From Candidatus Pacearchaeota archaeon (GTDB lineage Archaea > Nanobdellota > Nanobdellia > Pacearchaeales > GW2011-AR1): a stretch of 15,515 nucleotides of DNA. Position numbers and translations under genes: made by a program. Shown piece by piece: positions 262 to 15,347 of this stretch (its first letter is position 1; every line of letters starts with the position of its first letter). The notes below the pieces were generated by a model. That model was not told the origin of the DNA. It made no database searches and was given only the letters and a program-made list of their open reading frames with translations. The DNA lies in the NCBI GenBank assembly GCA_030699205.1, contig JAUYJY010000059.1, forward strand, positions 1 to 15,515, read 5' to 3'.

Positions 262-1503
262 TCAAAGAATATTAATAACACTAAATACCAACATTATAAG
301 AGAAGTAATTACTCCCAACAAAGACAAAACAGGAAACTTCCCGATATTCAATGGCATCCTAAACACTCTTTTTTCATCTTTCTTATATCTCAAAACAATT
401 GCAACTAAATTAATCAGTGCAAAAGTAGCAAATAACAATACAGTGGTCAAATCAGCAACAAAACCAATATCCTCAAAAAATGTCAAAGCAACAGTAACAA
501 TACCAACAGCAAAAACAGCAACATAAGGTGTCCCTCTTTTCTTATGAATCTTAGAAAATATTTTTGGAAGAAACTTTCGTTCAGCCATTCCATAAACCAT
601 TCTCGAAGTTGTAAGCATCGTTAATAAAACCGTATTTGATGTAGAAAATAAAGCAATTATGGCAAGAATAATAAAAGCAGTGCCTCCAAAAGAATAAGCT
701 GCTACATCGGCAAGAGGGCTCTTACTACCCGCAATCTGTTCAACAGGCAGAATACTTACAGCAGATATAGCAACTAAGATATACAAGATTGCAGTAATCA
801 CAACAGATAAAATAATTGCCTTGGGAATTGTCTTCTCCGGATTTTTAGCTTCCTCGCTCAACTTTACTATTGTCTCAAATCCCATAAATGCAAAAAACAA
901 CAAGGCTCCAGTCTTTAAAACTCCAAAAAATCCGTTAGGCATCTCAAACAAATCAACACTTCCAAAATGTTTAATTCCCAAAAGAATAATTATCACCAAT
1001 CCTAAAAATTCAATAGTCGTTGCAGTTAAGTTGAATTTATTGCTTTCTTTAATCCCCCAATAATTAAGAAAAGCCATCAACATAACAATTGCAATCCCTG
1101 CAAATAAATACCTGATTGCAATCAGCGAGGATAAATAGCCCGCAAACCCCAAAGCAACCGCCGCAGAACTTACAACACCTGTAAAAATAATAAGCAAAGA
1201 AACAAAACCCGCAAGTTTTCTTCCAAATCCCGCATTAATATAATCATATTCCCCTGCATCTCCTTTGAAAATGCTGCTAAGCTCTGCATAACTCAATCCC
1301 GTAAATGCAGCAACAATCGCAGAAATCAAAAAACTCAACCAAATTGTATTTCCCGTCTCTCCCGCAGCGATTCCAATCAAAGCATAAATCCCGGCACCCA
1401 ATATAATTCCCACACCTGCAACAGTAACACTAAAAAGTCCAAGCTCTTTCTTTAACTTCCCACCGCCTTTAATCAAAGGAGTTATCGATGCAATTTTTTT
1501 CAT
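262..1503 (-). CDS. APC-superfamily amino acid/polyamine permease
   Basis: 413-aa multi-pass hydrophobic ORF. The N-terminal block LFSVTVAGVGIILGAGIYALIG and GLSYAELSS are typical of the amino acid-polyamine-organocation transporter family. Confidence 0.85.
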   Translation of the reverse strand: MKKIASITPLIKGGGKLKKELGLFSVTVAGVGIILGAGIYALIGIAAGETGNTIWLSFLISAIVAAFTGLSYAELSSIFKGDAGEYDYINAGFGRKLAGFVSLLIIFTGVVSSAAVALGFAGYLSSLIAIRYLFAGIAIVMLMAFLNYWGIKESNKFNLTATTIEFLGLVIIILLGIKHFGSVDLFEMPNGFFGVLKTGALLFFAFMGFETIVKLSEEAKNPEKTIPKAIILSVVITAILYILVAISAVSILPVEQIAGSKSPLADVAAYSFGGTAFIILAIIALFSTSNTVLLTMLTTSRMVYGMAERKFLPKIFSKIHKKRGTPYVAVFAVGIVTVALTFFEDIGFVADLTTVLLFATFALINLVAIVLRYKKDEKRVFRMPLNIGKFPVLSLLGVITSLIMLVFSVINIL

Positions 1504-1596
1504 CTATTTGAAGACACTCTTTCTTCGATTTAACCAATACCCACTTTTAAATCCTTCTCAAAACTAGAAACCTAACTTCCTCAAACTTCATAAAAA

Positions 1597-3039
1597 TCAC
1601 CCCAGAACTTTCCTAACTATTTCCATTGCTCTCTTCGCATCTAACTTTCCTTTAAATTCTTTCATAACCAAACCCATATAAGCATTAGCCCTCAATCCCG
1701 GTTTTCCCTTAACCATCGCCCTTATTCTTTCTTCAATCTCATTTTCACCTGCTTTCTCAATCCTTAAAGCATCATCTAATTCTAACCCATCAAGAATTTT
1801 TTCCATAATTATTTTCACATCTGATTTATCTAACTTCCCTGAATTAACCTTCTCTAATATTCTTTCCAAAACTTTCTCGGATAAAACATCCCTAACATCA
1901 TCCATGCTCTTCCTCATCTTAGTTCCAAATTCAGTCCTCCAAAGAGTAATCATTTTCCCAACTAAATTAGCATCTTTGTTATATACCTTAATTAAAGCAA
2001 GAAATTCATCAACCACTTCGCCATTAGACAAAACTAATTTAATCATTTCATCAGACAGCCCCTTCTTCTTTAACAATCCAGTAAGTTCAGTCCTCAATTT
2101 AGGAAGGTGTTTTTTCAGCTTATTTACTCTCTCTCTCGAAATTTTTAATAAATCTAAATCAGTTTCAGGATACATCCTCGCCTGTCCGGGCATTGGCCTC
2201 AAATACTCCGTCTCTCCAGAAGGCAAAGCATTCCTAACCTCTCCAATTTTATTTCCCTTCTTAATATTTTCCAGTTGTCTTTCAATCTCCAAATCAATTG
2301 TTTTAACAAACATCTTAGGCTCCTGAAAACCTTTTATTTCAACCCTGTCATGTCCTTCAATAGAAACATTCACATCCTGCCTTATTGTCCCAATCCCTCT
2401 TTTAACCTTGCAAGCCCTTAAAATCTCTCCAAGTTTTAAAGCAACCTCTTTCACTTCTTCGGGATTTCTCATATCGGGTGCAGTAGCAATTTCAACTAAA
2501 GGAATCCCTAACCTATCCAATCTATAAACAACCTTATCTTTTTCTCTTAAAATAACCCTCGCAGAATCCTCTTCAAGACAAACACTATCAACCCCCACCT
2601 TCCCAAAAGAAGTTTCCACAAAACCCGAATGAGCAATCAAAACAGTTCTTTGAAATCCGGAAGTATTTGAGCCATCAATAACCGTCTTCCTCATAACCTG
2701 TGTTGTATAATATATCTCACAATTCAAAAGCAAAGCAACCTGTAAAGCGATATCTAAAGCATCTTCGTTTATAGGTCTTGGAGGCTCTTCATCCAACTCA
2801 ACAAGAGAAACAGAATCGCAATACCCTTCGTAGCAAAACTCTTTTCCCAAAACAGCTTCATGCATAACCGCAACATCAACCTCCCCAGTCTCACCAGCAA
2901 CAGCATGCATTCTCCGCCTAATAACATAATCCGGCTCATCGTTCCTCAAAAAAGAAGGTGCATTAGAAAACAACTTCCCAGTATCAATCTGCTGATGTAT
3001 CTCAAGCCCGGCTTTAAAACCAATTTTTTTATAATCCAT
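1597..3039 (-). CDS. gatE: Glu-tRNA(Gln) amidotransferase subunit E (GatE), compact 480-aa form
   Basis: GatB/E family blocks are present: GLEIHQQIDTGKLFS (GatE-type HQQ), LVELDEEPP, DGSNTSGFQRT, IRQDVNVSI and RMYPETD. There is a YqeY-like tail, AYMGLVMKEFKGKLDAKRAMEIV. The partner gatD is in the same window. Confidence 0.85.
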   Translation of the reverse strand: MDYKKIGFKAGLEIHQQIDTGKLFSNAPSFLRNDEPDYVIRRRMHAVAGETGEVDVAVMHEAVLGKEFCYEGYCDSVSLVELDEEPPRPINEDALDIALQVALLLNCEIYYTTQVMRKTVIDGSNTSGFQRTVLIAHSGFVETSFGKVGVDSVCLEEDSARVILREKDKVVYRLDRLGIPLVEIATAPDMRNPEEVKEVALKLGEILRACKVKRGIGTIRQDVNVSIEGHDRVEIKGFQEPKMFVKTIDLEIERQLENIKKGNKIGEVRNALPSGETEYLRPMPGQARMYPETDLDLLKISRERVNKLKKHLPKLRTELTGLLKKKGLSDEMIKLVLSNGEVVDEFLALIKVYNKDANLVGKMITLWRTEFGTKMRKSMDDVRDVLSEKVLERILEKVNSGKLDKSDVKIIMEKILDGLELDDALRIEKAGENEIEERIRAMVKGKPGLRANAYMGLVMKEFKGKLDAKRAMEIVRKVLG

Positions 3040-3060
3040 AATTAAATCAAAAGAATGTAG

Positions 3061-3070
3061 TTATTAAAAG
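3061..3070 (-). promoter_or_regulatory. TATA box (CTTTTAATAA on minus strand) for gatE, centred ~26 nt upstream of the ATG
   Basis: The same A/T motif at the same spacing is seen upstream of proS, the 9428-9997 gene and the tRNA. It abuts the stop of the upstream ligase gene. Confidence 0.45.
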
Positions 3071-3940
3071 TTATCTTCCAAAAAACTTTCTAATCTTGTC
3101 CATTTCTTCAGAAGCTGAAAGAGTTTTATAAGATTCAATAACCTTCTCTCTTGTATAATTGAACCCTCTTTCTTTCCTAATGTCCCTTCTAACTTCATCC
3201 ACTAAGCCTGTAAGAGTAACTGAAGACTTCCCCCTATCAAGTAAACGATGAAAAGCCTTCATAAACCTAAAACTCGTCAAATAATCTACATTTAAACCTC
3301 CAAAAACCCCTTCCCGTTTCTCAGCAAAATCAGGATGCAAAATCTTCCAAAACTCTTGAGGATCTGAATGATAATCTTTTATTACTAACCCTTCTCTCGG
3401 TCCGCTATAATATCCACTTCTCTCTTTGTTCAACATCAAATCAAAATCTTTAAAACTCAATCTTCCAAACTTTAAAACATCTAAAAAATTAACTCCCTCA
3501 ACACCCAAACTGATAATTTCCTTCCTGGCTTCTTCATAAGGAATAAATTTTCTGCTATCTCTATCAAACACATCAATTACAAAAAACTTATCGATAAACT
3601 CTGGATTATATTCAATTGAGTGATTTCCAAGCCATTCTCCAAAGACTATACGGTTTCCAGGTAGAGCATATAATGAATGATTTGAATGAGCCCAATCAAC
3701 AAATCTTCCAAACCAAGGAACTCTCTCAATAGTTTTCTTTCCTTTCAAAAATTTAGCCCTTGTTCCAAGTCTAATTTGAAAATTTGAAACACTGACTTGG
3801 CAATTCCCACCATCTACCTTTTCAAAAACTCCTACCTTCCGATTTTTCAGTACTTTGACAACTTCAGAAATCGAATCCAATGGAACAATCCCTCCATATT
3901 TCACAAAACTTTCATTATTATCATTTTTTGAACTTGCCAT
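3071..3940 (-). CDS. ATP-dependent RNA ligase, Rnl2-like / RNA_ligase superfamily (289 aa)
   Basis: Complete covalent nucleotidyltransferase motif set: I EK41VDGGN (codon K41 = 3818-3820), III VFGEWLG, IIIa FFVIDVFD, IV EGLVIKD, V WKILHPDF. KxDGxN rather than KxDGxR favours RNA ligase over DNA ligase. Confidence 0.8.
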   Translation of the reverse strand: MASSKNDNNESFVKYGGIVPLDSISEVVKVLKNRKVGVFEKVDGGNCQVSVSNFQIRLGTRAKFLKGKKTIERVPWFGRFVDWAHSNHSLYALPGNRIVFGEWLGNHSIEYNPEFIDKFFVIDVFDRDSRKFIPYEEARKEIISLGVEGVNFLDVLKFGRLSFKDFDLMLNKERSGYYSGPREGLVIKDYHSDPQEFWKILHPDFAEKREGVFGGLNVDYLTSFRFMKAFHRLLDRGKSSVTLTGLVDEVRRDIRKERGFNYTREKVIESYKTLSASEEMDKIRKFFGR

Positions 3941-3964
3941 TTTGTTATCTAGTAGACACCCAGT

Positions 3965-4606
3965 CTATTCCAGTATAATGGGAACCATCTGGACCCCTAT
4001 CTTTAAAAGATCAATGGTGGCCTGAACATGTTCATCAGCACTCAATACAACAACATGATTTAGATTTTCTATCGGAAGTCCACTAACAACTACAAATTTC
4101 TTTGGACTTGGAACTAATAAATATCTTGAAGATAATGCAGAAGTAACAAGCTTCAGATCACAATATGATATTTCATCTCTTTCACATTTCTTATGCCCTT
4201 TCTCAAATGCAACTCTTCCTGCAAGATGAACATTCAATCCTAGTAATTCAATATCAACATCAGGATCAAAAATGGTTTTGCTTAAAAGAGATTTATAAGC
4301 CTTATTCATTCTTTTGACAAAATCAAAAGTTCTCTCAGAAATTTCACGCCTACCGTGAACCCTATGATTTTCATAATGCCCCTTAGTTTCTTTGAAAATT
4401 TCATTAGAAACAAACAAAGGATAATTCTGATTAACTAAACTCCTATAAAAATCAGGAGAGCTACATGGAGAGTTCTCTAGTTCTGTTTCAATATCTATTA
4501 TTGCAGAAGTATCTAAAAAAATGGAAGGTCTTCCATCAGAAATTGCATTTATCTGCTTCGTTATTCGTTTAACTAATCCTTCCAAGCCATTCTCTTTCTT
4601 CTTCAT
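3965..4606 (-). CDS. PIN-domain nuclease (213 aa, enlarged PIN with insertions)
   Basis: The acidic quartet sits in canonical contexts: IFLD32TSAIID, FVSNE69IFKE, SYCD150LKLVTSAL, VVLSAD191EHV. It ends 24 nt upstream of the ligase gene on the same strand. Confidence 0.7.
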   Translation of the reverse strand: MKKKENGLEGLVKRITKQINAISDGRPSIFLDTSAIIDIETELENSPCSSPDFYRSLVNQNYPLFVSNEIFKETKGHYENHRVHGRREISERTFDFVKRMNKAYKSLLSKTIFDPDVDIELLGLNVHLAGRVAFEKGHKKCERDEISYCDLKLVTSALSSRYLLVPSPKKFVVVSGLPIENLNHVVVLSADEHVQATIDLLKIGVQMVPIILE

Positions 4607-4627
4607 ACTAAATAACCCCCCCTCCCA

Positions 4628-4637
4628 CTTTTAAACC
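4628..4637 (-). promoter_or_regulatory. TATA-like box (GGTTTAAAAG on minus strand) ~27 nt upstream of the PIN ATG
   Basis: A/T box at the spacing used by other genes in the window. Divergent intergenic region shared with the DUF1003 gene. Confidence 0.35.
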
Positions 4638-4645
4638 TTTCTGCT

Positions 4646-4668
4646 ATGTAACCCCCAAGAAGTTACAT
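4646..4668. promoter_or_regulatory. Inverted repeat ATGTAAC-N9-GTTACAT in the PIN / DUF1003 divergent intergenic region (possible operator)
   Basis: 7-bp perfect arms (4646-4652 and 4662-4668) lie between the two divergent TATA-like boxes. No binding protein can be assigned. Confidence 0.25.
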
Positions 4669-4688
4669 TAACACATACAACCCCAAGA

Positions 4689-4695
4689 TTTAAAT
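4689..4695 (+). promoter_or_regulatory. TATA box (TTTAAAT) ~26 nt upstream of the DUF1003 ATG
   Basis: Position and sequence are consistent with the other leaderless-type promoters in this window. Confidence 0.4.
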
Positions 4696-4717
4696 CCTAA
4701 AAAATCCAAAAATAGAA

Positions 4718-5137
4718 ATGAATAAAAAAGAAAAATTTCAGGAAATAAAAGAATCCGTAAACAACAAACTTAATCACCCAAATATTTCAGCAAAACGAAC
4801 ATTTGGAGAAAAAGCATCCGACAACCTAACAAAATGGGCGGGCTCGTGGATATTCATTATAATCTTCTTAGTAATAATTGCATTATGGATTTATATCAAT
4901 GTATCTTTCATATTAAACTACGGAAAAGAACCTTTTGACCCTTTCCCATTCATTCTTCTTAACCTCGCACTCTCTCTATTAGCTGCAATACAAGCCCCGA
5001 TAATTCTTATGTCCCAAAACAGAGAAGCCAAAAAAGACAGATTAAGAACAGAATATGACTACGCAGTAAATAGAAAAGCGGAAAGAGAAATTTCAGAGAT
5101 TAAAAGTCAATTAAACAGAATTGAAAAAAGAATATAA
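4718..5137 (+). CDS. DUF1003-family membrane protein
   Basis: 139 aa. The block GEKASDNLTKWAGSWIFIIIF ... FDPFPFILLNLALSLLAAIQAPIILMSQNREAKKDRLRTEYDYAVNRKAEREI matches the conserved DUF1003 core (FDPYPFILLNL...MSQNRQ...D..RAE.DY.VN.KAE). Confidence 0.8.
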   Translation: MNKKEKFQEIKESVNNKLNHPNISAKRTFGEKASDNLTKWAGSWIFIIIFLVIIALWIYINVSFILNYGKEPFDPFPFILLNLALSLLAAIQAPIILMSQNREAKKDRLRTEYDYAVNRKAEREISEIKSQLNRIEKRI

Positions 5138-5224
5138 AAAATAATGATTAGATAAAAAACGGACTAATCGGGCTTAAGGGATATTAAATTTTTGAGGCAT
5201 CACACAAAAATCCGAAGTGACAAG

Positions 5225-5371
5225 ATGGAGAAAAAAATTTGGGAAAATCACGAGCCGAGTGATTTTCCTTTAAAGTGCTGTTCAACGCCCCGACGAGCAA
5301 AGCGAGGAGAACGCAGTAGGGTCGAGGATTTCGAAAAAATCCGAAGAAGTCGAGAAAAAACTCGTATCTAG
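5225..5371 (+). CDS. Possible 48-codon Arg/Lys-rich small ORF inside GC-rich repeat A (MEKKIWENHEPSDFPLKCCSTPRRAKRGERSRVEDFEKIRRSREKTRI)
   Basis: Read by hand; it is below the length cut-off of the ORF track. ATG 5225, TAG 5369-5371. It uses CGA/CGC/AGG codons atypical of this window. It could equally be non-coding repeat or structured RNA. Confidence 0.2.
   Translation: MEKKIWENHEPSDFPLKCCSTPRRAKRGERSRVEDFEKIRRSREKTRI
5241..5363 (+). repeat. GC-rich repeat copy A (left arm of the inverted pair flanking ORF 5480-6193)
   Basis: The blocks GGGAAAATCA 5241-5250, TGTTCAACGC 5279-5288 and TCGAGAAAAAACTC 5350-5363 are exact reverse complements of blocks at 6245-6254, 6217-6226 and 6201-6214. There is an internal perfect 10-bp hairpin at 5242-5251/5259-5268. 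31 G/C in 5281-5340. Confidence 0.7.
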
Positions 5372-5449
5372 TGCGAAGCACACTTTATTCAAAATATTAA
5401 GGTTGTGGCTTATTGTTTAGTCACTTAATAGTAGTCATAGATAGAAAGA

Positions 5450-5457
5450 TTTATAAA
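5450..5457 (+). promoter_or_regulatory. TATA box (TTTATAAA) ~27 nt upstream of the ATG of ORF 5480-6193
   Basis: Sequence and spacing are as for other genes here. It lies inside the repeat-bracketed segment. Confidence 0.45.
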
Positions 5458-5479
5458 GAATAAAAATAAACCAATTTCA

Positions 5480-6193
5480 ATGGAATTAGAACCTATATTA
5501 AATGACTTTGAATGTTATAGGCAAGTTCAAAGAATTAAAGGTTTAGATAATCTTCTAACAGATTATTTAATAACACATGAACTTGCTGTATCAGATGGAG
5601 AACCAAATCAGGGAAGAGAAGTGAGACTAATGAGGGATAAACCTGATTTATCTAGTCGTTCTGTAATATTTCATGAAAAGTGTGAGATTGGTTTATATCT
5701 TGGATTATTTGCAACCAATCTGGGTTTTAAATATACTGAGGATGAAGTTAGGAATGGAACAGCACATAAACAGAATTATATTGAAGCACATAATGTTGCT
5801 GAATCAATAGAACTTGCATTATTACAACATGTTGCAATGAAAGTAAGTGGAAGAAAAATTCCATTTTTTGCAATACTTCCTACTAGGCCTGTGATACAAA
5901 TTTTTGATCCTGAATTTAAAGTTGCAAAATTAAGAATGGGTAGATATCTTCCAAATAACTCATTTTTTAGATTGTATGCAGGAACAGAAGAGTTTGTGCC
6001 ACTTAAATTTAATCCAGAAGATGTTCAAGCAAGTTTTGAAATGTTTGAAAGATTTGGCTCTGAATATCATACTCCTGATTTTAAAGATAGATGTCTAACA
6101 GCAGTTAAAAATTTTGTAAGAAGCACTAATATTAAATATGAATCATTGCAAGAGTCTATGCGTGTTAGAGTAAAACAAGCCCCAACCTTTTAG
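5480..6193 (+). CDS. Orphan hypothetical protein (237 aa) with an RNxxxH motif
   Basis: Long ORF with host-like composition and its own TATA box. I recognise no family. R91-N-G-T-A-H96 (5750-5767) fits the HEPN Rx4-6H pattern, but that is weak evidence on its own. Confidence 0.6.
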   Translation: MELEPILNDFECYRQVQRIKGLDNLLTDYLITHELAVSDGEPNQGREVRLMRDKPDLSSRSVIFHEKCEIGLYLGLFATNLGFKYTEDEVRNGTAHKQNYIEAHNVAESIELALLQHVAMKVSGRKIPFFAILPTRPVIQIFDPEFKVAKLRMGRYLPNNSFFRLYAGTEEFVPLKFNPEDVQASFEMFERFGSEYHTPDFKDRCLTAVKNFVRSTNIKYESLQESMRVRVKQAPTF

Positions 6194-6200
6194 GAGTTTA

Positions 6201-6300
6201 GAGTTTTTTCTCGATTGCGTTGAACATCGGAATTTAACGAAGTTTGATTTTCCCTCGTGAAGCGAAGCGGAACGGAGAAGTTTATTTTTAGGGGCGTTAA
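6201..6300 (-). repeat. GC-rich repeat copy B (right arm, inverted and internally rearranged relative to A)
   Basis: It contains the reverse complements of the three A blocks, plus a second GGGGCGTTAA (6291-6300) related to TTCAACGCCCC of A. It starts 7 nt after the stop of ORF 5480-6193. Confidence 0.7.
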
Positions 6301-6623
6301 TCCAATGAATATGTATAGAAGATTTCATCTTCGCCATAATGAATTTCTTTTAAAGTTCCAATTTCTTTAAAGCCAAAACTTTTATGCATTTTTTGAGAAG
6401 CAACATTTTTTTTATGTGTTGAACTTAAGGCGATTCTATTTTTACTTTTTTGTTGTTGAGAAATTTCAATATATTTAGATAATAAAGTCTTTTCTTTATG
6501 AGTTACATTGTGAATAATAATGCCCGATAAAACAGCGTCATATCCCTGACCTAAATCTTCTTTGGTAAAATCTCCACGAATTAGTTTTATACACAGCTTA
6601 TAAATATTTATTCGCTCAACAAT
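6297..6623 (-). pseudogene. Start-less C-terminal fragment of a GNAT-like acetyltransferase (108 codons open, no ATG/GTG/TTG before codon ~73)
   Basis: Hand translation of the minus strand gives IVERINIYKLCIKLIRGDFTKEDLGQGYDAVLSGIIIHNVTHKEKTLLSKYIEISQQQKSKNRIALSSTHKKNVASQKMHKSFGFKEIGTLKEIHYGEDEIFYTYSLD*. The tail N-x2-[AS]-x3-[YH]-x2-x-GF-x-x-x-G is GNAT motif-B-like. The open frame begins right after a TGA at 6624-6626 and overlaps the gatD 3' end. Confidence 0.45.
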
Positions 6624-7873
6624 TCATTAAACTCTCCGGAAAAATTCCCAAGCATTTTTTCCCTAACTTTCTCCCTGCTTCTCCAGTTTTTATGTCCTAA
6701 AACAAAACCAAGTTTAACAAAAGCGGTTTCAGACAACATATCCCCTAAAAAAATAACTCCTGCTTTTTCCAATTCTCTTCCGGTAGAATAAACCTTTGGA
6801 TTTAACCTTCCATAAATTGTCTGAGAAACTGCAAAAACAAACAATCCAGATTTAACAAGTTTCTTTATCTTTGCAATCCAGCCAATATTAACATGCCCAA
6901 GCCCAGACATTTCAATGATAATTCCCTTATATTTCTCTTTTAAATAATAATCTAAAATTCCTTCATCCTGTCCGGGGTAGAATTTTACCAACGCAATTTT
7001 ATCATTAAAACTGCAATCCAATTCAGTTTTACCGTTATTTCTTGGCTTATATTCTCTCAAAAATTCAATCTTGTCCCTGAAAACTTTTGCAATCTCCCTC
7101 GTATTAACTGCCTTAAAAGTATCTCTTCTTGAAGTGTGCATCTTCCTCACTTTATTTCCTTGCAACGCATAACAAAAATCATCATTTGTAGAAGCATGCC
7201 CAACGATAACAACTTCTGCACAATCACCCAACGCAAAAGAAACTGCACAATCAAGATTCATCTCCGCATCCGAACTCGCCCTGTCAATGCTCCTTTGCGA
7301 AAATGTCAAAACAACAGGTTTATTCAAATCTTTCAAAAAAAATGACAAAATAGAAGAAGTATAATGCAAAAAATCAGAACCATGCGTAATAATTACCCCT
7401 TCAATATCTTTGTCATTCAACATTTTTTTAGTGATTTCGGCAATTTTAATCCAATGTTTCCAGTTCATATTTTCAGAAAGTTCCATAAATGGAATCTCCA
7501 TTTTAACATTAACTTTCTCAAACAACTTGGGATAAAACTTCGCAAACTCATCAACACCAGCCAATGCAGTTACTCCCCCTGTTTTTGCATCAAGCTTAGA
7601 GGCAATTGTCCCCCCGGTAACAATCAACCCTATAGTTTTTTTATGGTCATCAAAAGAAGTTTTAATCTCATTTTTTACATCCTCTTTAAATTTCTTCAAA
7701 ACCTTAAAATCTAAAATATTTTCCCTTGCGATTCCAATATTATATCCGGATTTTAATTTAATTAAAATAATCTCCTTGTCATAACTCTCAAGAATCCTCC
7801 CCTCAATTTCCTTCTTAGCCAATCTCAACAAAACATAATCCCCTGCACTAAAATTTAATTTTGATTCAGTCAT
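6608..7873 (-). CDS. gatD: Glu-tRNA(Gln) amidotransferase subunit D (GatD)
   Basis: 421 aa. An N-terminal small beta domain is followed by an asparaginase-like core with IGLIVTGGTIASKLD and VIITHGSDFLHYTS. GAGGAG lies ~9 nt upstream of the ATG. Confidence 0.9.
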   Translation of the reverse strand: MTESKLNFSAGDYVLLRLAKKEIEGRILESYDKEIILIKLKSGYNIGIARENILDFKVLKKFKEDVKNEIKTSFDDHKKTIGLIVTGGTIASKLDAKTGGVTALAGVDEFAKFYPKLFEKVNVKMEIPFMELSENMNWKHWIKIAEITKKMLNDKDIEGVIITHGSDFLHYTSSILSFFLKDLNKPVVLTFSQRSIDRASSDAEMNLDCAVSFALGDCAEVVIVGHASTNDDFCYALQGNKVRKMHTSRRDTFKAVNTREIAKVFRDKIEFLREYKPRNNGKTELDCSFNDKIALVKFYPGQDEGILDYYLKEKYKGIIIEMSGLGHVNIGWIAKIKKLVKSGLFVFAVSQTIYGRLNPKVYSTGRELEKAGVIFLGDMLSETAFVKLGFVLGHKNWRSREKVREKMLGNFSGEFNELLSE

Positions 7874-10087: not shown

Positions 10088-10160
10088 GGGCCTATAGTTT
10101 AATGGATTAGAATAAGGGACTTCGGATCCCTAGATCGAGGTTCGATTCCTCGTAGGCCCA
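10088..10160 (+). tRNA. tRNA-Arg (anticodon UCG), 73 nt, no encoded CCA, no intron
   Basis: Cloverleaf folded by hand:
- Acceptor stem GGGCCTA/TAGGCCC.
- D stem GTTT/GAAT (2 G-U pairs), with GG in the D loop.
- Anticodon stem AGGGA/TCCCT with loop CT-TCG-GA.
- 4-nt variable loop.
- T arm CGAGG-TTCGATT-CCTCG.
- Discriminator A. Confidence 0.85.
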
Positions 10161-14153: not shown

Positions 14154-14375
14154 ATGGTAGTTAAAACATTTAATGTTGATTTAGCAGTTTACAAGAAGTT
14201 CTTGCAATTTTGCAGAGATAATGGGATTAGTATGAGCAAGCAAATTGAAATTTTTATGAAATCAAGAGTAGATGAAAAGAAAGAAGTTAGAGAAGAATAT
14301 TTGCAAAAGTTAGAGGAAATAAGAAGAGGAAAGTTTATTAGAGTTGGTGATTTTTCTAAGAGATATGGACTATGA
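14154..14375 (+). CDS. Ribbon-helix-helix (CopG/RelB-like) antitoxin
   Basis: 73 aa. An N-terminal beta strand (KTFNVDL) is followed by two helices (AVYKKFLQFCRDNGISMSKQIEIFMKS) and a charged C-terminal tail. It overlaps the toxin gene by 11 nt. Confidence 0.7.
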   Translation: MVVKTFNVDLAVYKKFLQFCRDNGISMSKQIEIFMKSRVDEKKEVREEYLQKLEEIRRGKFIRVGDFSKRYGL

Positions 14376-14634
14376 ATTAGAAATACCTGAAAATTTGGAT
14401 AGGATTTTTCATAAATTATCTAAAAAAGATAAAAAGTCATTAGAAATAATAAACAATAAAATAAACGGCATTCTGGAAAATCCCTATCAATTTAAACCCC
14501 TGAGAAATAAAATGGCTGGAATAAGGAGAGTCCATGTCGGAAAAAGTTTTGTTCTTACTTACGAAATTTTAGAAGCCGAGAAGATTGTTAGACTTTTAGA
14601 TTACGACCATCATGATAAGATATTTAAAAAATAA
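14365..14634 (+). CDS. RelE/ParE-superfamily type II toxin (89 aa from ATG 14365; the track start at 14344 is a TTG)
   Basis: MDYELEIPENLDRIFHKLSKKDKKSLEIINNKINGILENPYQFKPLRNKMAGIRRVHVGKSFVLTYEILEAEKIVRLLDYDHHDKIF. This follows the RelE/ParE pattern (...P...KPL......RR.RVG.Y...Y.I......V.......H...IY) and the gene order is classic antitoxin-toxin. Confidence 0.75.
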   Translation: MDYELEIPENLDRIFHKLSKKDKKSLEIINNKINGILENPYQFKPLRNKMAGIRRVHVGKSFVLTYEILEAEKIVRLLDYDHHDKIFKK

Positions 14635-14707
14635 ACTTCTTTGGTTTCTTTAACTTCAAGTTAAACGCCCCCACGATTAATAAACATCAGATTTAAAGTA
14701 AACTTCT
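14630..14707 (+). repeat. Composite motif cluster between relE-like stop and the convergent GC-rich ORF
   Basis: Elements, in order:
- AATAAACTTCT at 14630-14640.
- 17-nt perfect palindrome TTTAACTTCAAGTTAAA at 14649-14665.
- AACGCCCC at 14664-14671.
- AATAAACATC at 14679-14688.
- TAAACTTCT again at 14699-14707.
The AACGCCCC + AATAAAC(T/A)TC arrangement also occurs on the minus strand at 6298-6276. Confidence 0.5.
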
Positions 14708-15347
14708 ATAAACCTTCGGTCTGCAATATTCCCTTCATCTCGAGCACACCCGCTCCGCGGGAAACGACTACTACCCGACCGTCCTCGTCCGAGTTAGCGA
14801 TATCCTCGTCGTACGAGCCGACCCTGAGACTCCTGTTCAGACACAACCCCGAAAGGTTTCTATCAGAAGTATGCCATGTGCGACTTCCTTTCTCCCTATC
14901 CAAATTAAGAGGAAATCCTTTTTCATCTGCCTTATCGAAGTTATATCCATTCCATTTAGGGCTAAGTCTATCATCTGCCTGAGCTTGGAAAGCTACAGTA
15001 GGAACGACACGCAAGCCATATCCTTTTTCATCTTCCATCCATGGATCCACTTTAAGTCCTGTAACTAATACTGGCGTCCTCAAATCGCCAACACGGTCTG
15101 CAAGTTCTCCAAAAATAGGAAGACTTCTTTCATAACCTCTGCCCGCTCCACGATAACCTCTGCCCGTTCCAAGTAAAACAAATGCAGGAGTATCAGTATA
15201 ATGACTATATTTAACTTGCCTAAAAACACGCGGGTCGCTTAAGTCTATAAGTTGTGCAACGCCAGCAGAAGGTGCAAGCATTTCATCAACTAACATTGAA
15301 AGAAAAGGTGTAGAACCTCTGAATTTTCCTCGATTAGATTCTATCAA
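14706..15347 (-). CDS. Orphan hypothetical protein (213 aa), compositionally foreign, with GxGRGY tandem duplication
   Basis: Long ORF in a region much more GC-rich than the rest (39 G/C in 14741-14800). It uses CGN Arg codons. The start is uncertain: TTG at 15347, and the first ATG is codon 18. No family recognised. Confidence 0.6.
   Translation of the reverse strand: MIESNRGKFRGSTPFLSMLVDEMLAPSAGVAQLIDLSDPRVFRQVKYSHYTDTPAFVLLGTGRGYRGAGRGYERSLPIFGELADRVGDLRTPVLVTGLKVDPWMEDEKGYGLRVVPTVAFQAQADDRLSPKWNGYNFDKADEKGFPLNLDREKGSRTWHTSDRNLSGLCLNRSLRVGSYDEDIANSDEDGRVVVVSRGAGVLEMKGILQTEGL

Follow-up and report, generated by a model that had tools for sequence, protein, structure and literature searches.

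The locus examined here raises the question of what kind of element places exactly complementary sequence blocks on the two sides of a solitary gene. The window, by which we mean the whole stretch of 15,515 nucleotides that was analyzed, belongs to a contig (JAUYJY010000059.1) from a metagenome-assembled genome (MAG) of Candidatus Pacearchaeota. The open reading frame (ORF) in question occupies positions 5480–6193, and its product is 100% identical to NCBI protein Q8P57_05105. Positions ~5170–6224 in all likelihood constitute one integron-like gene cassette, which sits, along with the stump of a second cassette (6225–~6600), as an insertion between the convergently oriented host genes for DUF1003 and GatD. 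The family to which the cassette belongs would recombine through a folded attC-like element, designated U, and the copy in the window is a fossil.

Complementary blocks and the element U

The first-pass annotation of the window described three exact reverse-complement pairs nested around the ORF, and all of them are present: block A at 5241–5250/6245–6254, block B at 5279–5288/6217–6226, and block C at 5350–5363/6201–6214. The same holds for the 10-bp hairpin 5242–5251/5259–5268, for the ORF itself, and for the TATA-like sequence TTTATAAA at 5450–5457. The annotation had also proposed a resampling check, which we performed with 2000 dinucleotide-preserving shuffles of the intergenic arms (5138–5479 and 6194–6296). 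A match of at least 14 nt appeared in one shuffle, and single 10-mers in 277 (14%), so that each 10-mer alone is unremarkable. A chain of at least three collinear blocks, or of at least 34 nt, was not reproduced in any of the 2000 shuffles, and the blocks are therefore not due to chance.

The two arms are parts of U, a self-complementary element of ~190 nt: hairpin H2, L', R', and an invariant core are in the left arm, and R'', L'', and hairpin H1 in the right. Profiles derived from 34 other U copies, with the window excluded, place the 5' third of U at 6212–6276 (+ strand, E=3e-7) and its middle part at 5238–5315 (+ strand, E=1e-14). Because both placements are on the + strand, the arms are two different segments of one self-complementary element and not, as had been suggested, diverged and rearranged copies in inverted orientation. 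The purine-rich block that keeps its orientation in both arms had been read as a sign of such rearrangement; it is a loop motif that recurs in U. The contiguous form of U is found in locus L005, where right-arm sequence runs on, on the same strand, into left-arm-like sequence, and it is also found in L013. A small protein encoded in the left arm was considered and rejected. The Arg/Lys-rich ORF noted there (48/59 codons) and an antisense ORF of 65 codons are not kept as frames, the homologous L005 copy has no start codon, and the variation within the family follows the stems through compensatory changes and is not codon-like.

A search for further copies of the element was carried out with scans for the core pattern, which recovered U in at least 120 metagenome stretches and in at least 119 stretches of species-representative genome contigs; the nhmmer match of the core in the window has an E-value of 1.4e-8. 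Among the matches listed, the hosts are DPANN and other archaea, relatives of methanogens, and members of the candidate phyla radiation (CPR) and other bacterial phyla, and near-identical copies occur across bacteria and archaea. Near-identical U sequences are present in MAGs labelled Gammaproteobacteria, Chlorobium, Ignavibacteria, Bdellovibrionales, Omnitrophota, and others (genome contigs L135–L253), and a copy is located in the complete Gracilibacteria chromosome OY782391.1. The presence of U on some short contigs may reflect binning contamination, and on some long contigs (180–365 kb) it is probably genuine. U was not found in the PLSDB plasmids or INPHARED phages, and a scan of viral contigs with the core pattern produced one true copy (L013, a contig of low G+C content) and five chance matches in GC-rich phages. 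The copy in the window is an ordinary fossil, an accessory-gene cassette stranded between two housekeeping genes; the family behind it is a widespread, cross-domain, and apparently under-described integron-type variant.

From 5' to 3' on the + strand, the first half of U is composed of C5', TT, R'' (for example GCGTATAAC), a 4-nt spacer, L'', GAAGT, and H1. The second half continues with TTTGGG, H2 with the loop GAGCYGA, L', TT, R' (GTTATACGC), the core, CGTGG, hairpin H3, AGT, and C3'. The L-side spacer is 4 nt long on one side versus 2 nt on the other, and the terminal structure is branched, formed by H1 and H2. The core has a length of 27 nt and the pattern CCGACGAnnnAAnnGAGGAGAnCGCAG, and is invariant apart from the small hairpin CC-GA-N-(5 nt)-N'-GA-GG, the closing pair of which covaries between C-G and A-T and is G-C in the window copy. 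U is asymmetric with respect to strand in its spacer, its tandem G·A pairs, and the location of the core and H3 on one side.

The annotation had asked whether relatives carry compensatory changes, and the stems of U covary strongly. We compared the proposed helices in an alignment of 35 diverse U copies (A2) with 500 shuffles and with slid controls. Paired cells amount to 86% in the proposed helices versus 71% in the shuffles, and the covariation score is 0.39 versus 0.14; none of the 500 shuffles reaches it, and the slid controls remain at or below 0.15. Changes on both sides of a pair are found in 7 of the 10 pairs of the L stem, 5 of 7 in H1, and 6 of 9 in H2. The L stem is paired in 92% of cells with its partner arms ~70 nt apart, and its 10 bp include no conserved unpaired (extrahelical) base in A2. 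The AAC/GTT pairing (columns 35–37 with 125–127) is present in 33–35 of the 35 sequences (94–100%), and the outer R pairs are paired in just ~50%, as expected for hybrid junctions. H1, H2, and H3 combine conserved loops with covarying stems, and RNAalifold found the same helices independently, without the proposed structure as input. The evidence of the stems on strand is mixed. They contain 28 G-T cells (GT/TG) versus 30 A-C cells (AC/CA), and this lack of a wobble excess speaks against an RNA that tolerates wobble pairs; the 54 cells of tandem G·A/A·G mismatches, in H2 and the core hairpin, are stable solely on the + strand.

Cassette ends, arrays, and the linked recombinase

In the 106 copies used for a terminal test, ~120 nt after the core were compared with the 3-kb flanks, and the longest exact reverse-complement match was recorded. 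The downstream match has a median length of 14–15 nt and reaches 18 nt, versus a median of 9–10 nt in the upstream control. Throughout the family, the post-core segment and the stretch immediately ahead of the next "..TAAC" box are complementary, and this downstream partner is typically followed by TT and an R'' that fits the R' ahead of that same core. A stricter rule, requiring a C stem of at least 11 nt and then an R'' fitting the copy's own R', was applied to the 132 copies with enough downstream sequence; 71 qualify, with 67 distinct cargo ORFs. The cassettes delimited in this way have a median length of 1114 nt (range 412–4384), and their cargo ORF is on the strand opposite to U in 53 of the 71. 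The cargo includes N6 and C5 DNA methylases, a GmrSD-like protein, a PEP-utilising enzyme, a glycosyltransferase, a P-type ATPase, a queuosine-salvage protein, a GH130 enzyme, and a TrmB regulator. U ferries genes of restriction-modification, defence, transporter, and resistance types.

The positions at which shared cassettes part define the cassette ends. Up to ..ACGTTTAACA, L049 has the sequence of L075 and L237 (100% identity), and it diverges thereafter; L049 enters another cassette, and L075 and L237 enter an attI-like site followed by a recombinase gene. The pairs L100/L164 and L188/L201 part after ..TAA|, and L023/L039 at ..AA|CGTTCC. The divergence of shared cassettes at AA|C indicates that the crossover takes place there (G|TT on the other strand), as it does in integrons.

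Among the matches listed, 24 metagenome and 8 genome loci contain two to five U copies, which almost always have one orientation. A gene for a tyrosine recombinase of ~270 amino acids (aa) is located at the R'' side in all 28 of the loci that have one, and in 24 of these it shares the strand of U. The interval separating the last R'' from the recombinase gene contains conserved attI-like motifs. They are of type A, TAAC|TCGTTnnTATACGAAGT with a second TATACGAAGT ~40 nt on, or of type B, TAAC|AACTATTAAGCGAGA. The type-A arm TATACGAAGT(TAT) is repeated upstream of the recombinase genes in L041, L043, L063, L071, L133, L220, and L234, and we take it to be identical to the inner 10–13 bp of the loxP arm. 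The R'' arm TTGCGTATAA presumably resembles the XerC arm of Escherichia coli dif.

Four array-linked recombinases, 268–279 aa long, were compared with models and structures. TIGR02249 matches them in two stretches (positions 1–177 and 238–306 of 315) with 199–220 bits versus a cut-off of 265, and VchIntIA (PDB: 2a3v) is likewise matched in two stretches. NF040815 scores 211–234 bits, and the best PDB matches are the XerA structures 5hxy and 4a8e. The split matches, together with XerA as the best model and structure, identify the recombinase as XerA-like and lacking the insertion specific to integron integrases (IntI). It is the sole recurrent enzyme among 698 clustered neighbour ORFs, which include no recurrent HUH/TnpA or TnpB.

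In the commonest cassette class, ~130 nt after the core are alike while the cargo differs (many loci, for example L013 1349–1500, L016, L036, and L134). This stretch contains a palindromic C stem TTCAAAAAATATTTTTC, the motif GATAGGCTTTCCTCAAT, and a local hairpin GTTTTGAAAAATGAA/TTCATTTTTCAAAAC, and may be a terminator or insulator module. Some inter-cassette junctions are short palindromes consisting of two arms separated by 4 to 6 nt, for example GACATAA TTCCTG TTATGTC. These short-form junctions and the attI-like sites are dif-like in form, and the long-form sites covary, which favours folding.

The probable cassette in the window and its insertion site

On the + strand, the cassette in the window is laid out as C|, the L''-H1-H2-L' module, R' (GTTnnnnGC), the 27-nt core hairpin, H3, C3', the cargo gene with its own predicted promoter, C5', and R'' (..nnTAA). 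The first third of its U element (U1, 5160–5237) is degenerate, with an R''-like ACTAA at 5163–5167, an L''-like GGGCTTAAGGG at 5170–5180, and CCGAAGT at 5212–5218. It resembles L046 (GCTAACATCGGGCTTAAACGAAGT) in alignments A1 and A2, and the 5' profile scores nothing there (E=1.3); L256 and L257 have a mini-site with ATAATCCGAAGT at the matching spot. This part no longer pairs with the downstream L' and R', and the L stem of U1 is broken. The left boundary of the cassette would lie at ~5168–5170. TTTGGG and hairpin H2 follow at 5238–5268 (+), with the stem 5242–5251/5259–5268 closing the loop GAGCCGA at 5252–5258, and the left half of block A falls within the 5' side of that stem.

An L'-like sequence at 5269–5278 (+) precedes the R' box at 5279–5288 (TGTTCAACGC, + strand), which is the left half of block B. 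R' pairs in 10 of 10 positions with R'' at 6217–6226 (GCGTTGAACA, + strand, block B right), so that GTT 5280–5282 is opposite AAC 6223–6225, and the pair differs from the family consensus GTTATACGC/GCGTATAAC by two compensatory double changes. The core is located at 5290–5316 (+). The H3 region at 5317–5349 (+) pairs GGATTT 5326–5331 with AAATCC 5337–5342, ends with GAAGAAGT, and belongs to the class of L116 (TCGAGGAATTTTGAAAAAATTCCGAAGAAGT). The terminal inverted repeat C3' (TCGAGAAAAAACTC, 5350–5363, + strand, block C left) begins 33 nt past the core, which is the usual place in the family, and matches its partner C5' (GAGTTTTTTCTCGA, 6201–6214, + strand) in 14 of 14 positions. C5' is identical or nearly identical to the sequence 3' of the homologous ORFs in L004, L005, and L001, and its T-run may serve as terminator of the ORF. 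The right end of the cassette would be at the AA|C crossover 6224/6225. Blocks B and C are the cassette's own ends.

The second U (U2, 6227–6296, + strand) is the truncated start of the next cassette. It consists of L'' TCGGAATTTAACG, GAAGT, the H1 5' strand TTGATTTTCCC (block A right), the purine loop GCGAAGCGGAACGGAGAAGT, and a C3'-like end TTATTTTTAGGGGCG; no partner for this end was found in the window. U2 lacks H2, L', R', and the core, and the 5' profile match described above (6212–6276, E=3e-7) extends over most of it. Its H1 strand is similar to that of L072, and 20 of 20 nt are identical to the H3 loop of L126. The TGATTTTCCC of block A in the right arm accordingly forms the 5' side of an H1 stem like that of L072, and merely resembles the H2 stem of the left arm. 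Block A is incidental, a by-product of the recurring GGAAAAT/ATTTTCC stems in U. An open frame at 6297–6620 (−), with no start codon until 6389, resembles by eye the C-terminus of GNAT proteins and has no Pfam or PADLOC match; it is probably the truncated cargo of the next cassette. The window copy is a fossil, in which U1 has lost the pairing of R'' and L'', and U2 has lost H2, L', R', and the core. An earlier proposal that the arms are decayed duplicates of a small foreign gene was right about the decay of both arms and wrong about the gene.

The module at 5364–5479 (+) is a predicted promoter, whose TATA box (5450–5457) is positioned ~22 nt upstream of the ATG (30 nt from the first base of the box). 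About 80 nt upstream of the ORF are kept in the homologues in L001 and L004, and the motif AGTAGT..GAAAGATTTATAAA recurs in the + strand cassettes L119, L096, and L129. The cargo gene (5480–6193, +) encodes an all-alpha protein of 237 aa to which no function is assigned. Six homologues with 51–83% identity are found in unrelated neighbourhoods without common synteny. Right-arm sequence follows the stop codon of those in L004, L005, and L001, and the same C5'/R'' tail is attached to the ORF homologues in four unrelated contexts. The protein has 29 representative clusters among 1.84 billion proteins. Its AlphaFold2 model is all-alpha (pLDDT 87.8, pTM 0.86), and searches of Pfam, PADLOC, PDB sequences, and Foldseek returned no significant match. 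Conserved His/Glu motifs and weak heme-oxygenase-like matches provide a hint, nothing more.

The insertion is flanked on the left by the host gene for DUF1003 (4718–5137, +; PF06210, E=3e-35) and on the right by that for GatD (6608–7873, −; assigned from Pfam and synteny in relatives). The gene order ProRS-GatD/DUF1003-GatE is kept in relatives whose GatD is 70–74% identical. Between the stop codons of GatD and DUF1003, L258 and L259 have 0 nt, L256 and L257 have 59 nt, and L254 has 286 nt, versus 1470 nt in the window, which identifies the segment as an insertion. The annotation had called for a comparison of related strains; in these relatives the segment is absent. The reading of the repeats as the limits of a mobile cassette with its recombinase outside the window is borne out by the terminal complementarity, the AA|C breakpoints, the arrays next to a tyrosine recombinase, and the empty site in relatives; the invertible version of it is not. 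The spacer between GatD and DUF1003 looks like a recurrent insertion target.

In L256 (7211–7271) and L257 (1827–1887), the 59-nt spacer is filled by a miniature U-like site, which reads TCACTCAAC|ATAATCCGAAGT, a hairpin, and then TTGTTGTGA CTTGC TCACAAC. It has neither core nor cargo, and may be a resident attB-like target or an empty cassette.

A second variable spot of the window, at 3071–4606 between DUF1003 and GatE, contains an RNA ligase (PF09414) and a 213-aa protein whose function is not known. The same spot is an 85-nt gap in L257, holds a 175-aa gene and Fic in L254, and a 328-aa gene in L258. No U-like sequence is present at the borders of this spot that were read (3030–3080 and 4590–4730), and the RNA ligase, which had been tentatively linked to the blocks, is therefore unrelated to the cassette and belongs to a separate variable spot. 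A possible second cassette junction is located at 14645–14680 (context 14154–15347), with the sequence TTTCTTTAAC TTCAA GTTAAACGCC CCCACGA. It resembles a short-form R''-spacer-R' followed by the first 7 nt of a degenerate core, and its profile match is weak (E=0.16). It is directly 3' of a ParE-like toxin gene (14344–14634, with a small ORF upstream at 14154–14375) and adjoins a 213-aa ORF (14706–15347, −) of 42–48% GC without a Pfam match.

Mechanism, relation to known systems, and alternatives

According to the integron-like reading, excision of the cassette as a circle would join its ends, so that R'' pairs with R' and C5' with C3' to complete an attC-like multi-hairpin site of ~190 nt. 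The circle junction would read ..GCGTTGAA|C followed by the start of the cassette's own L''. The partners of blocks B and C flank the cargo gene because the integrated state separates the ends that pair in the circle. The XerA-like recombinase encoded at the R'' end of arrays would cut and exchange strands at AA|C (G|TT), either between a folded site and the attI-like duplex site by its own gene, or between two folded sites. By analogy with the bottom strand of attC (PMC2727003), the + strand would fold as single-stranded DNA (ssDNA), which the G·A tandems support. The core, H3, and the C stem would take over the role that extrahelical bases and the IntI insertion have in bacteria, as cues to strand and direction. 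Family membership, the folded architecture with its covariation, the cassette-specific ends, the breakpoints, the arrays, the recombinase linkage, and the insertion relative to other genomes are established from sequence; catalysis of the exchange by the recombinase, the ssDNA substrate, and the role of the core are inferred.

The first-pass annotation held that no described element type fits the observations at this locus. This is not so: the arrangement corresponds to an integron cassette bounded by attC-like sites. In attC sites, the R'' and R' boxes carry AAC/GTT, the L stem is conserved in structure and not in sequence, the central spacer is unpaired, and the terminal structure is variable (PMC2727003). 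U has these features: AAC/GTT is near-invariant in its R''/R' boxes, its L stem varies in sequence and covaries, its spacer is unpaired, and its terminal structure is branched. Similarly to integrons, the cassettes of the family are ~0.4–4 kb long with one diverse accessory gene each. They form arrays of one orientation that end at an attI-like site by a tyrosine recombinase gene, a feature of the family and not of the window. Viewed as its reverse complement, an array has the recombinase gene divergent from most of the cargo and the structured site 3' of the cargo. In classical integrons the crossover is at G|TT of R', which makes the 5' end of each cassette complementary to the R'' of that cassette; the U family has the same crossover and cassette ends complementary to their own opposite box. 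Classical cassettes are generally promoterless and expressed from the promoter Pc, whereas many U cassettes, including that in the window, have their own predicted promoter.

Other properties set U apart from integrons. Classical integrases have an IntI-specific additional domain around patch III (PMC9668308, citing Messier & Roy 2001), and two or three extrahelical bases on the R''-L'' arm of attC direct the choice of strand (PMC2727003). The U-linked recombinase of ~270 aa lacks the insertion and the L stem of U lacks the extrahelical bases, and the system is for these reasons not filed as a classical integron. In addition, U has the 27-nt core and H3 next to R', a cassette-specific C stem of 11–18 bp that extends the R pairing, and some junctions that are short dif-like palindromes. 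Its hosts are CPR, DPANN, and other uncultivated lineages, and the searches of plasmid and phage collections did not find it.

Ghaly et al. 2022 (PMC9668308) reported clusters of attC sites without IntI (CALINs) in Pacearchaeales, Woesearchaeales, Methanosarcinales, ANME-1, Methanofastidiosum, Aenigmatarchaeota, and Thermoplasmatota, and attC sites 95–100% identical shared by archaea and bacteria. The six archaeal IntIs of that study carry the IntI insertion, and singleton attC sites, such as the one in the window would be, were excluded there. The taxa given there carry U, and near-identical U copies likewise cross the domains. U may be part of what was seen. Neither a conserved core nor XerA-type array recombinases are described in that paper, its supplement contains no U sequences or contig accessions, and no description of either feature was found in the literature searched.

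Several observations weigh against the integron-like reading. The window has neither a recombinase nor an array, and both flanking sites are defective, so that this copy can at best have been mobile in the past. For the "empty sites", the nearest genomes are 70–74% identical in GatD and are not strains of the same species. Under the stricter rule, 61 of the 132 copies have no clear C-stem/R'' partner, and ~90% of the loci among the matches listed have no recombinase, although most such contigs are short. The invariant core has no explained function. Since the recombinase lacks the IntI-specific insertion and the L stem has no extrahelical bases that are conserved, it cannot simply be taken for granted that the mechanism is the classical integron one.

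The main mechanistic alternative is duplex recombination of the dif type. Typical dif sites have two 11-bp inverted arms around a 6-bp spacer, ~28 bp in all, and are recombined as duplex DNA by the host Xer proteins (PMC2958812). If U were recombined in this way, without folding of ssDNA, its stems would reflect two inverted dif-like sites (R''-spacer-L'' and L'-spacer-R') flanking H1-H2. Acinetobacter pdif modules, which are flanked by inversely oriented sites, and integrative mobile elements exploiting Xer (IMEX) such as CTX phage are Xer-dependent, and the folded single-stranded attP of CTX phage mimics dif. U shares with such modules a Xer-type recombinase, here XerA-like by its NF040815 scores and by 5hxy and 4a8e, and inner arms ..ATAA/TTAT.. 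around a short spacer. R'' with L'', and L' with R', can be read as inverted arms around a 6–8-nt spacer, the attI-like sites repeat TATACGAAGT, the short-form junctions are simple palindromes, and the stems have no excess of G-T over A-C. No dif site was identified in these genomes, nor a link to a chromosomal dif or replication terminus. Unlike in Xer modules, the recombinase gene is at the array end with a dedicated attI-like site, and U has long covarying hairpins and an invariant core. The L arms vary freely yet keep their pairing over ~70 nt, which indicates selection on pairing and not on a sequence read by a protein; the tandem G·A/A·G mismatches, stable on the + strand alone, and the conserved loops and covarying stems of H1, H2, and H3 also speak against duplex sites. 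We consider this explanation unlikely. Subterminal hairpins, strand asymmetry, and insertion 3' of a short specific sequence are also features of the palindrome-associated transposable elements (PATE) and miniature inverted-repeat transposable elements (MITE) derived from IS200/IS605. A single-strand transposon of this type, moved by a Y1 HUH transposase and inserting 3' of a TAAC-like tetranucleotide, would account for the breakpoints directly after ..TAAC or ..TAA, for the strand-asymmetric hairpins, and for tandem arrays of one orientation. It is hardly credible given the tyrosine recombinase always on one side, the attI-like sites adjoining its gene, the lack of recurrent HUH/TnpA (Y1) or TnpB among the neighbours, and the diverse, cassette-sized cargo.

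The strong covariation and conserved loops, the resemblance of the G·A tandems to kink-turn-like motifs, and the 34 nt of exact complementarity across the ORF would also fit a structured non-coding RNA, the arms of which pair across the ORF on a read-through transcript for processing or circularisation, as the annotation had considered, or the halves of which join in trans in the manner of split archaeal RNA genes. This is very improbable. The ORF has its own conserved TATA box directly upstream, which leaves the left arm off its transcript, the strand opposite to U encodes the cargo in 53 of 71 cassettes, and the stems have no G-U bias. Rfam 15 has no match at E≤10 in 5050–6450, and nothing but a tRNA at E≤1 in ten other U-bearing loci; in the window, Rfam and ARAGORN detect a tRNA-Arg (TCG) at 10088–10160 alone, which is unrelated to the cassette. 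Folds of the single arms are not more stable than those of shuffles (z = −0.6 to +1.0), and an RNA model would not predict cassette-specific ends and AA|C breaks by a recombinase gene. A split or permuted non-coding RNA, or trans-splicing with the RNA ligase, was dropped because of the cassette-specific ends, arrays, recombinase, and AA|C breakpoints. A diversity-generating retroelement, group II intron, TnpB omega-RNA, IS110 bridge RNA, and C/D or H/ACA small RNA were rejected too, as the box motifs are missing and neither a reverse transcriptase nor a TnpB or DEDD gene is nearby. Chance matches or functionless leftovers of local duplication would fit the decay visible in both arms and the 14% of shuffles with single 10-mers. 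The probability of this is negligible in view of the block chain, seen in none of the 2000 shuffles, the 14-mer, seen in one, and the recurrence of the same architecture in the at least 120 metagenome and at least 119 genome-contig stretches.

Within the integron-like reading, we tentatively suggest, at less than even confidence, that U marks an undescribed branch of integron-like systems, shared near base for base between CPR, DPANN, and other archaea. In this branch, a short XerA-type recombinase would capture promoter-bearing cassettes, and strand and direction would be set by the 27-nt G·A hairpin core and the cassette-specific closing stem. If so, it would be a minimal, ancestral-looking form joining Xer/dif recombination and integrons, and a vehicle for gene flow between archaea and bacteria. 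Integrase-based searches for integrons would miss such arrays, and the known range and diversity of integron-type gene capture would be wider. U would then provide a testable intermediate between Xer/dif and integrons, and a sequence tag to trace gene exchange between archaea and bacteria with reduced genomes.

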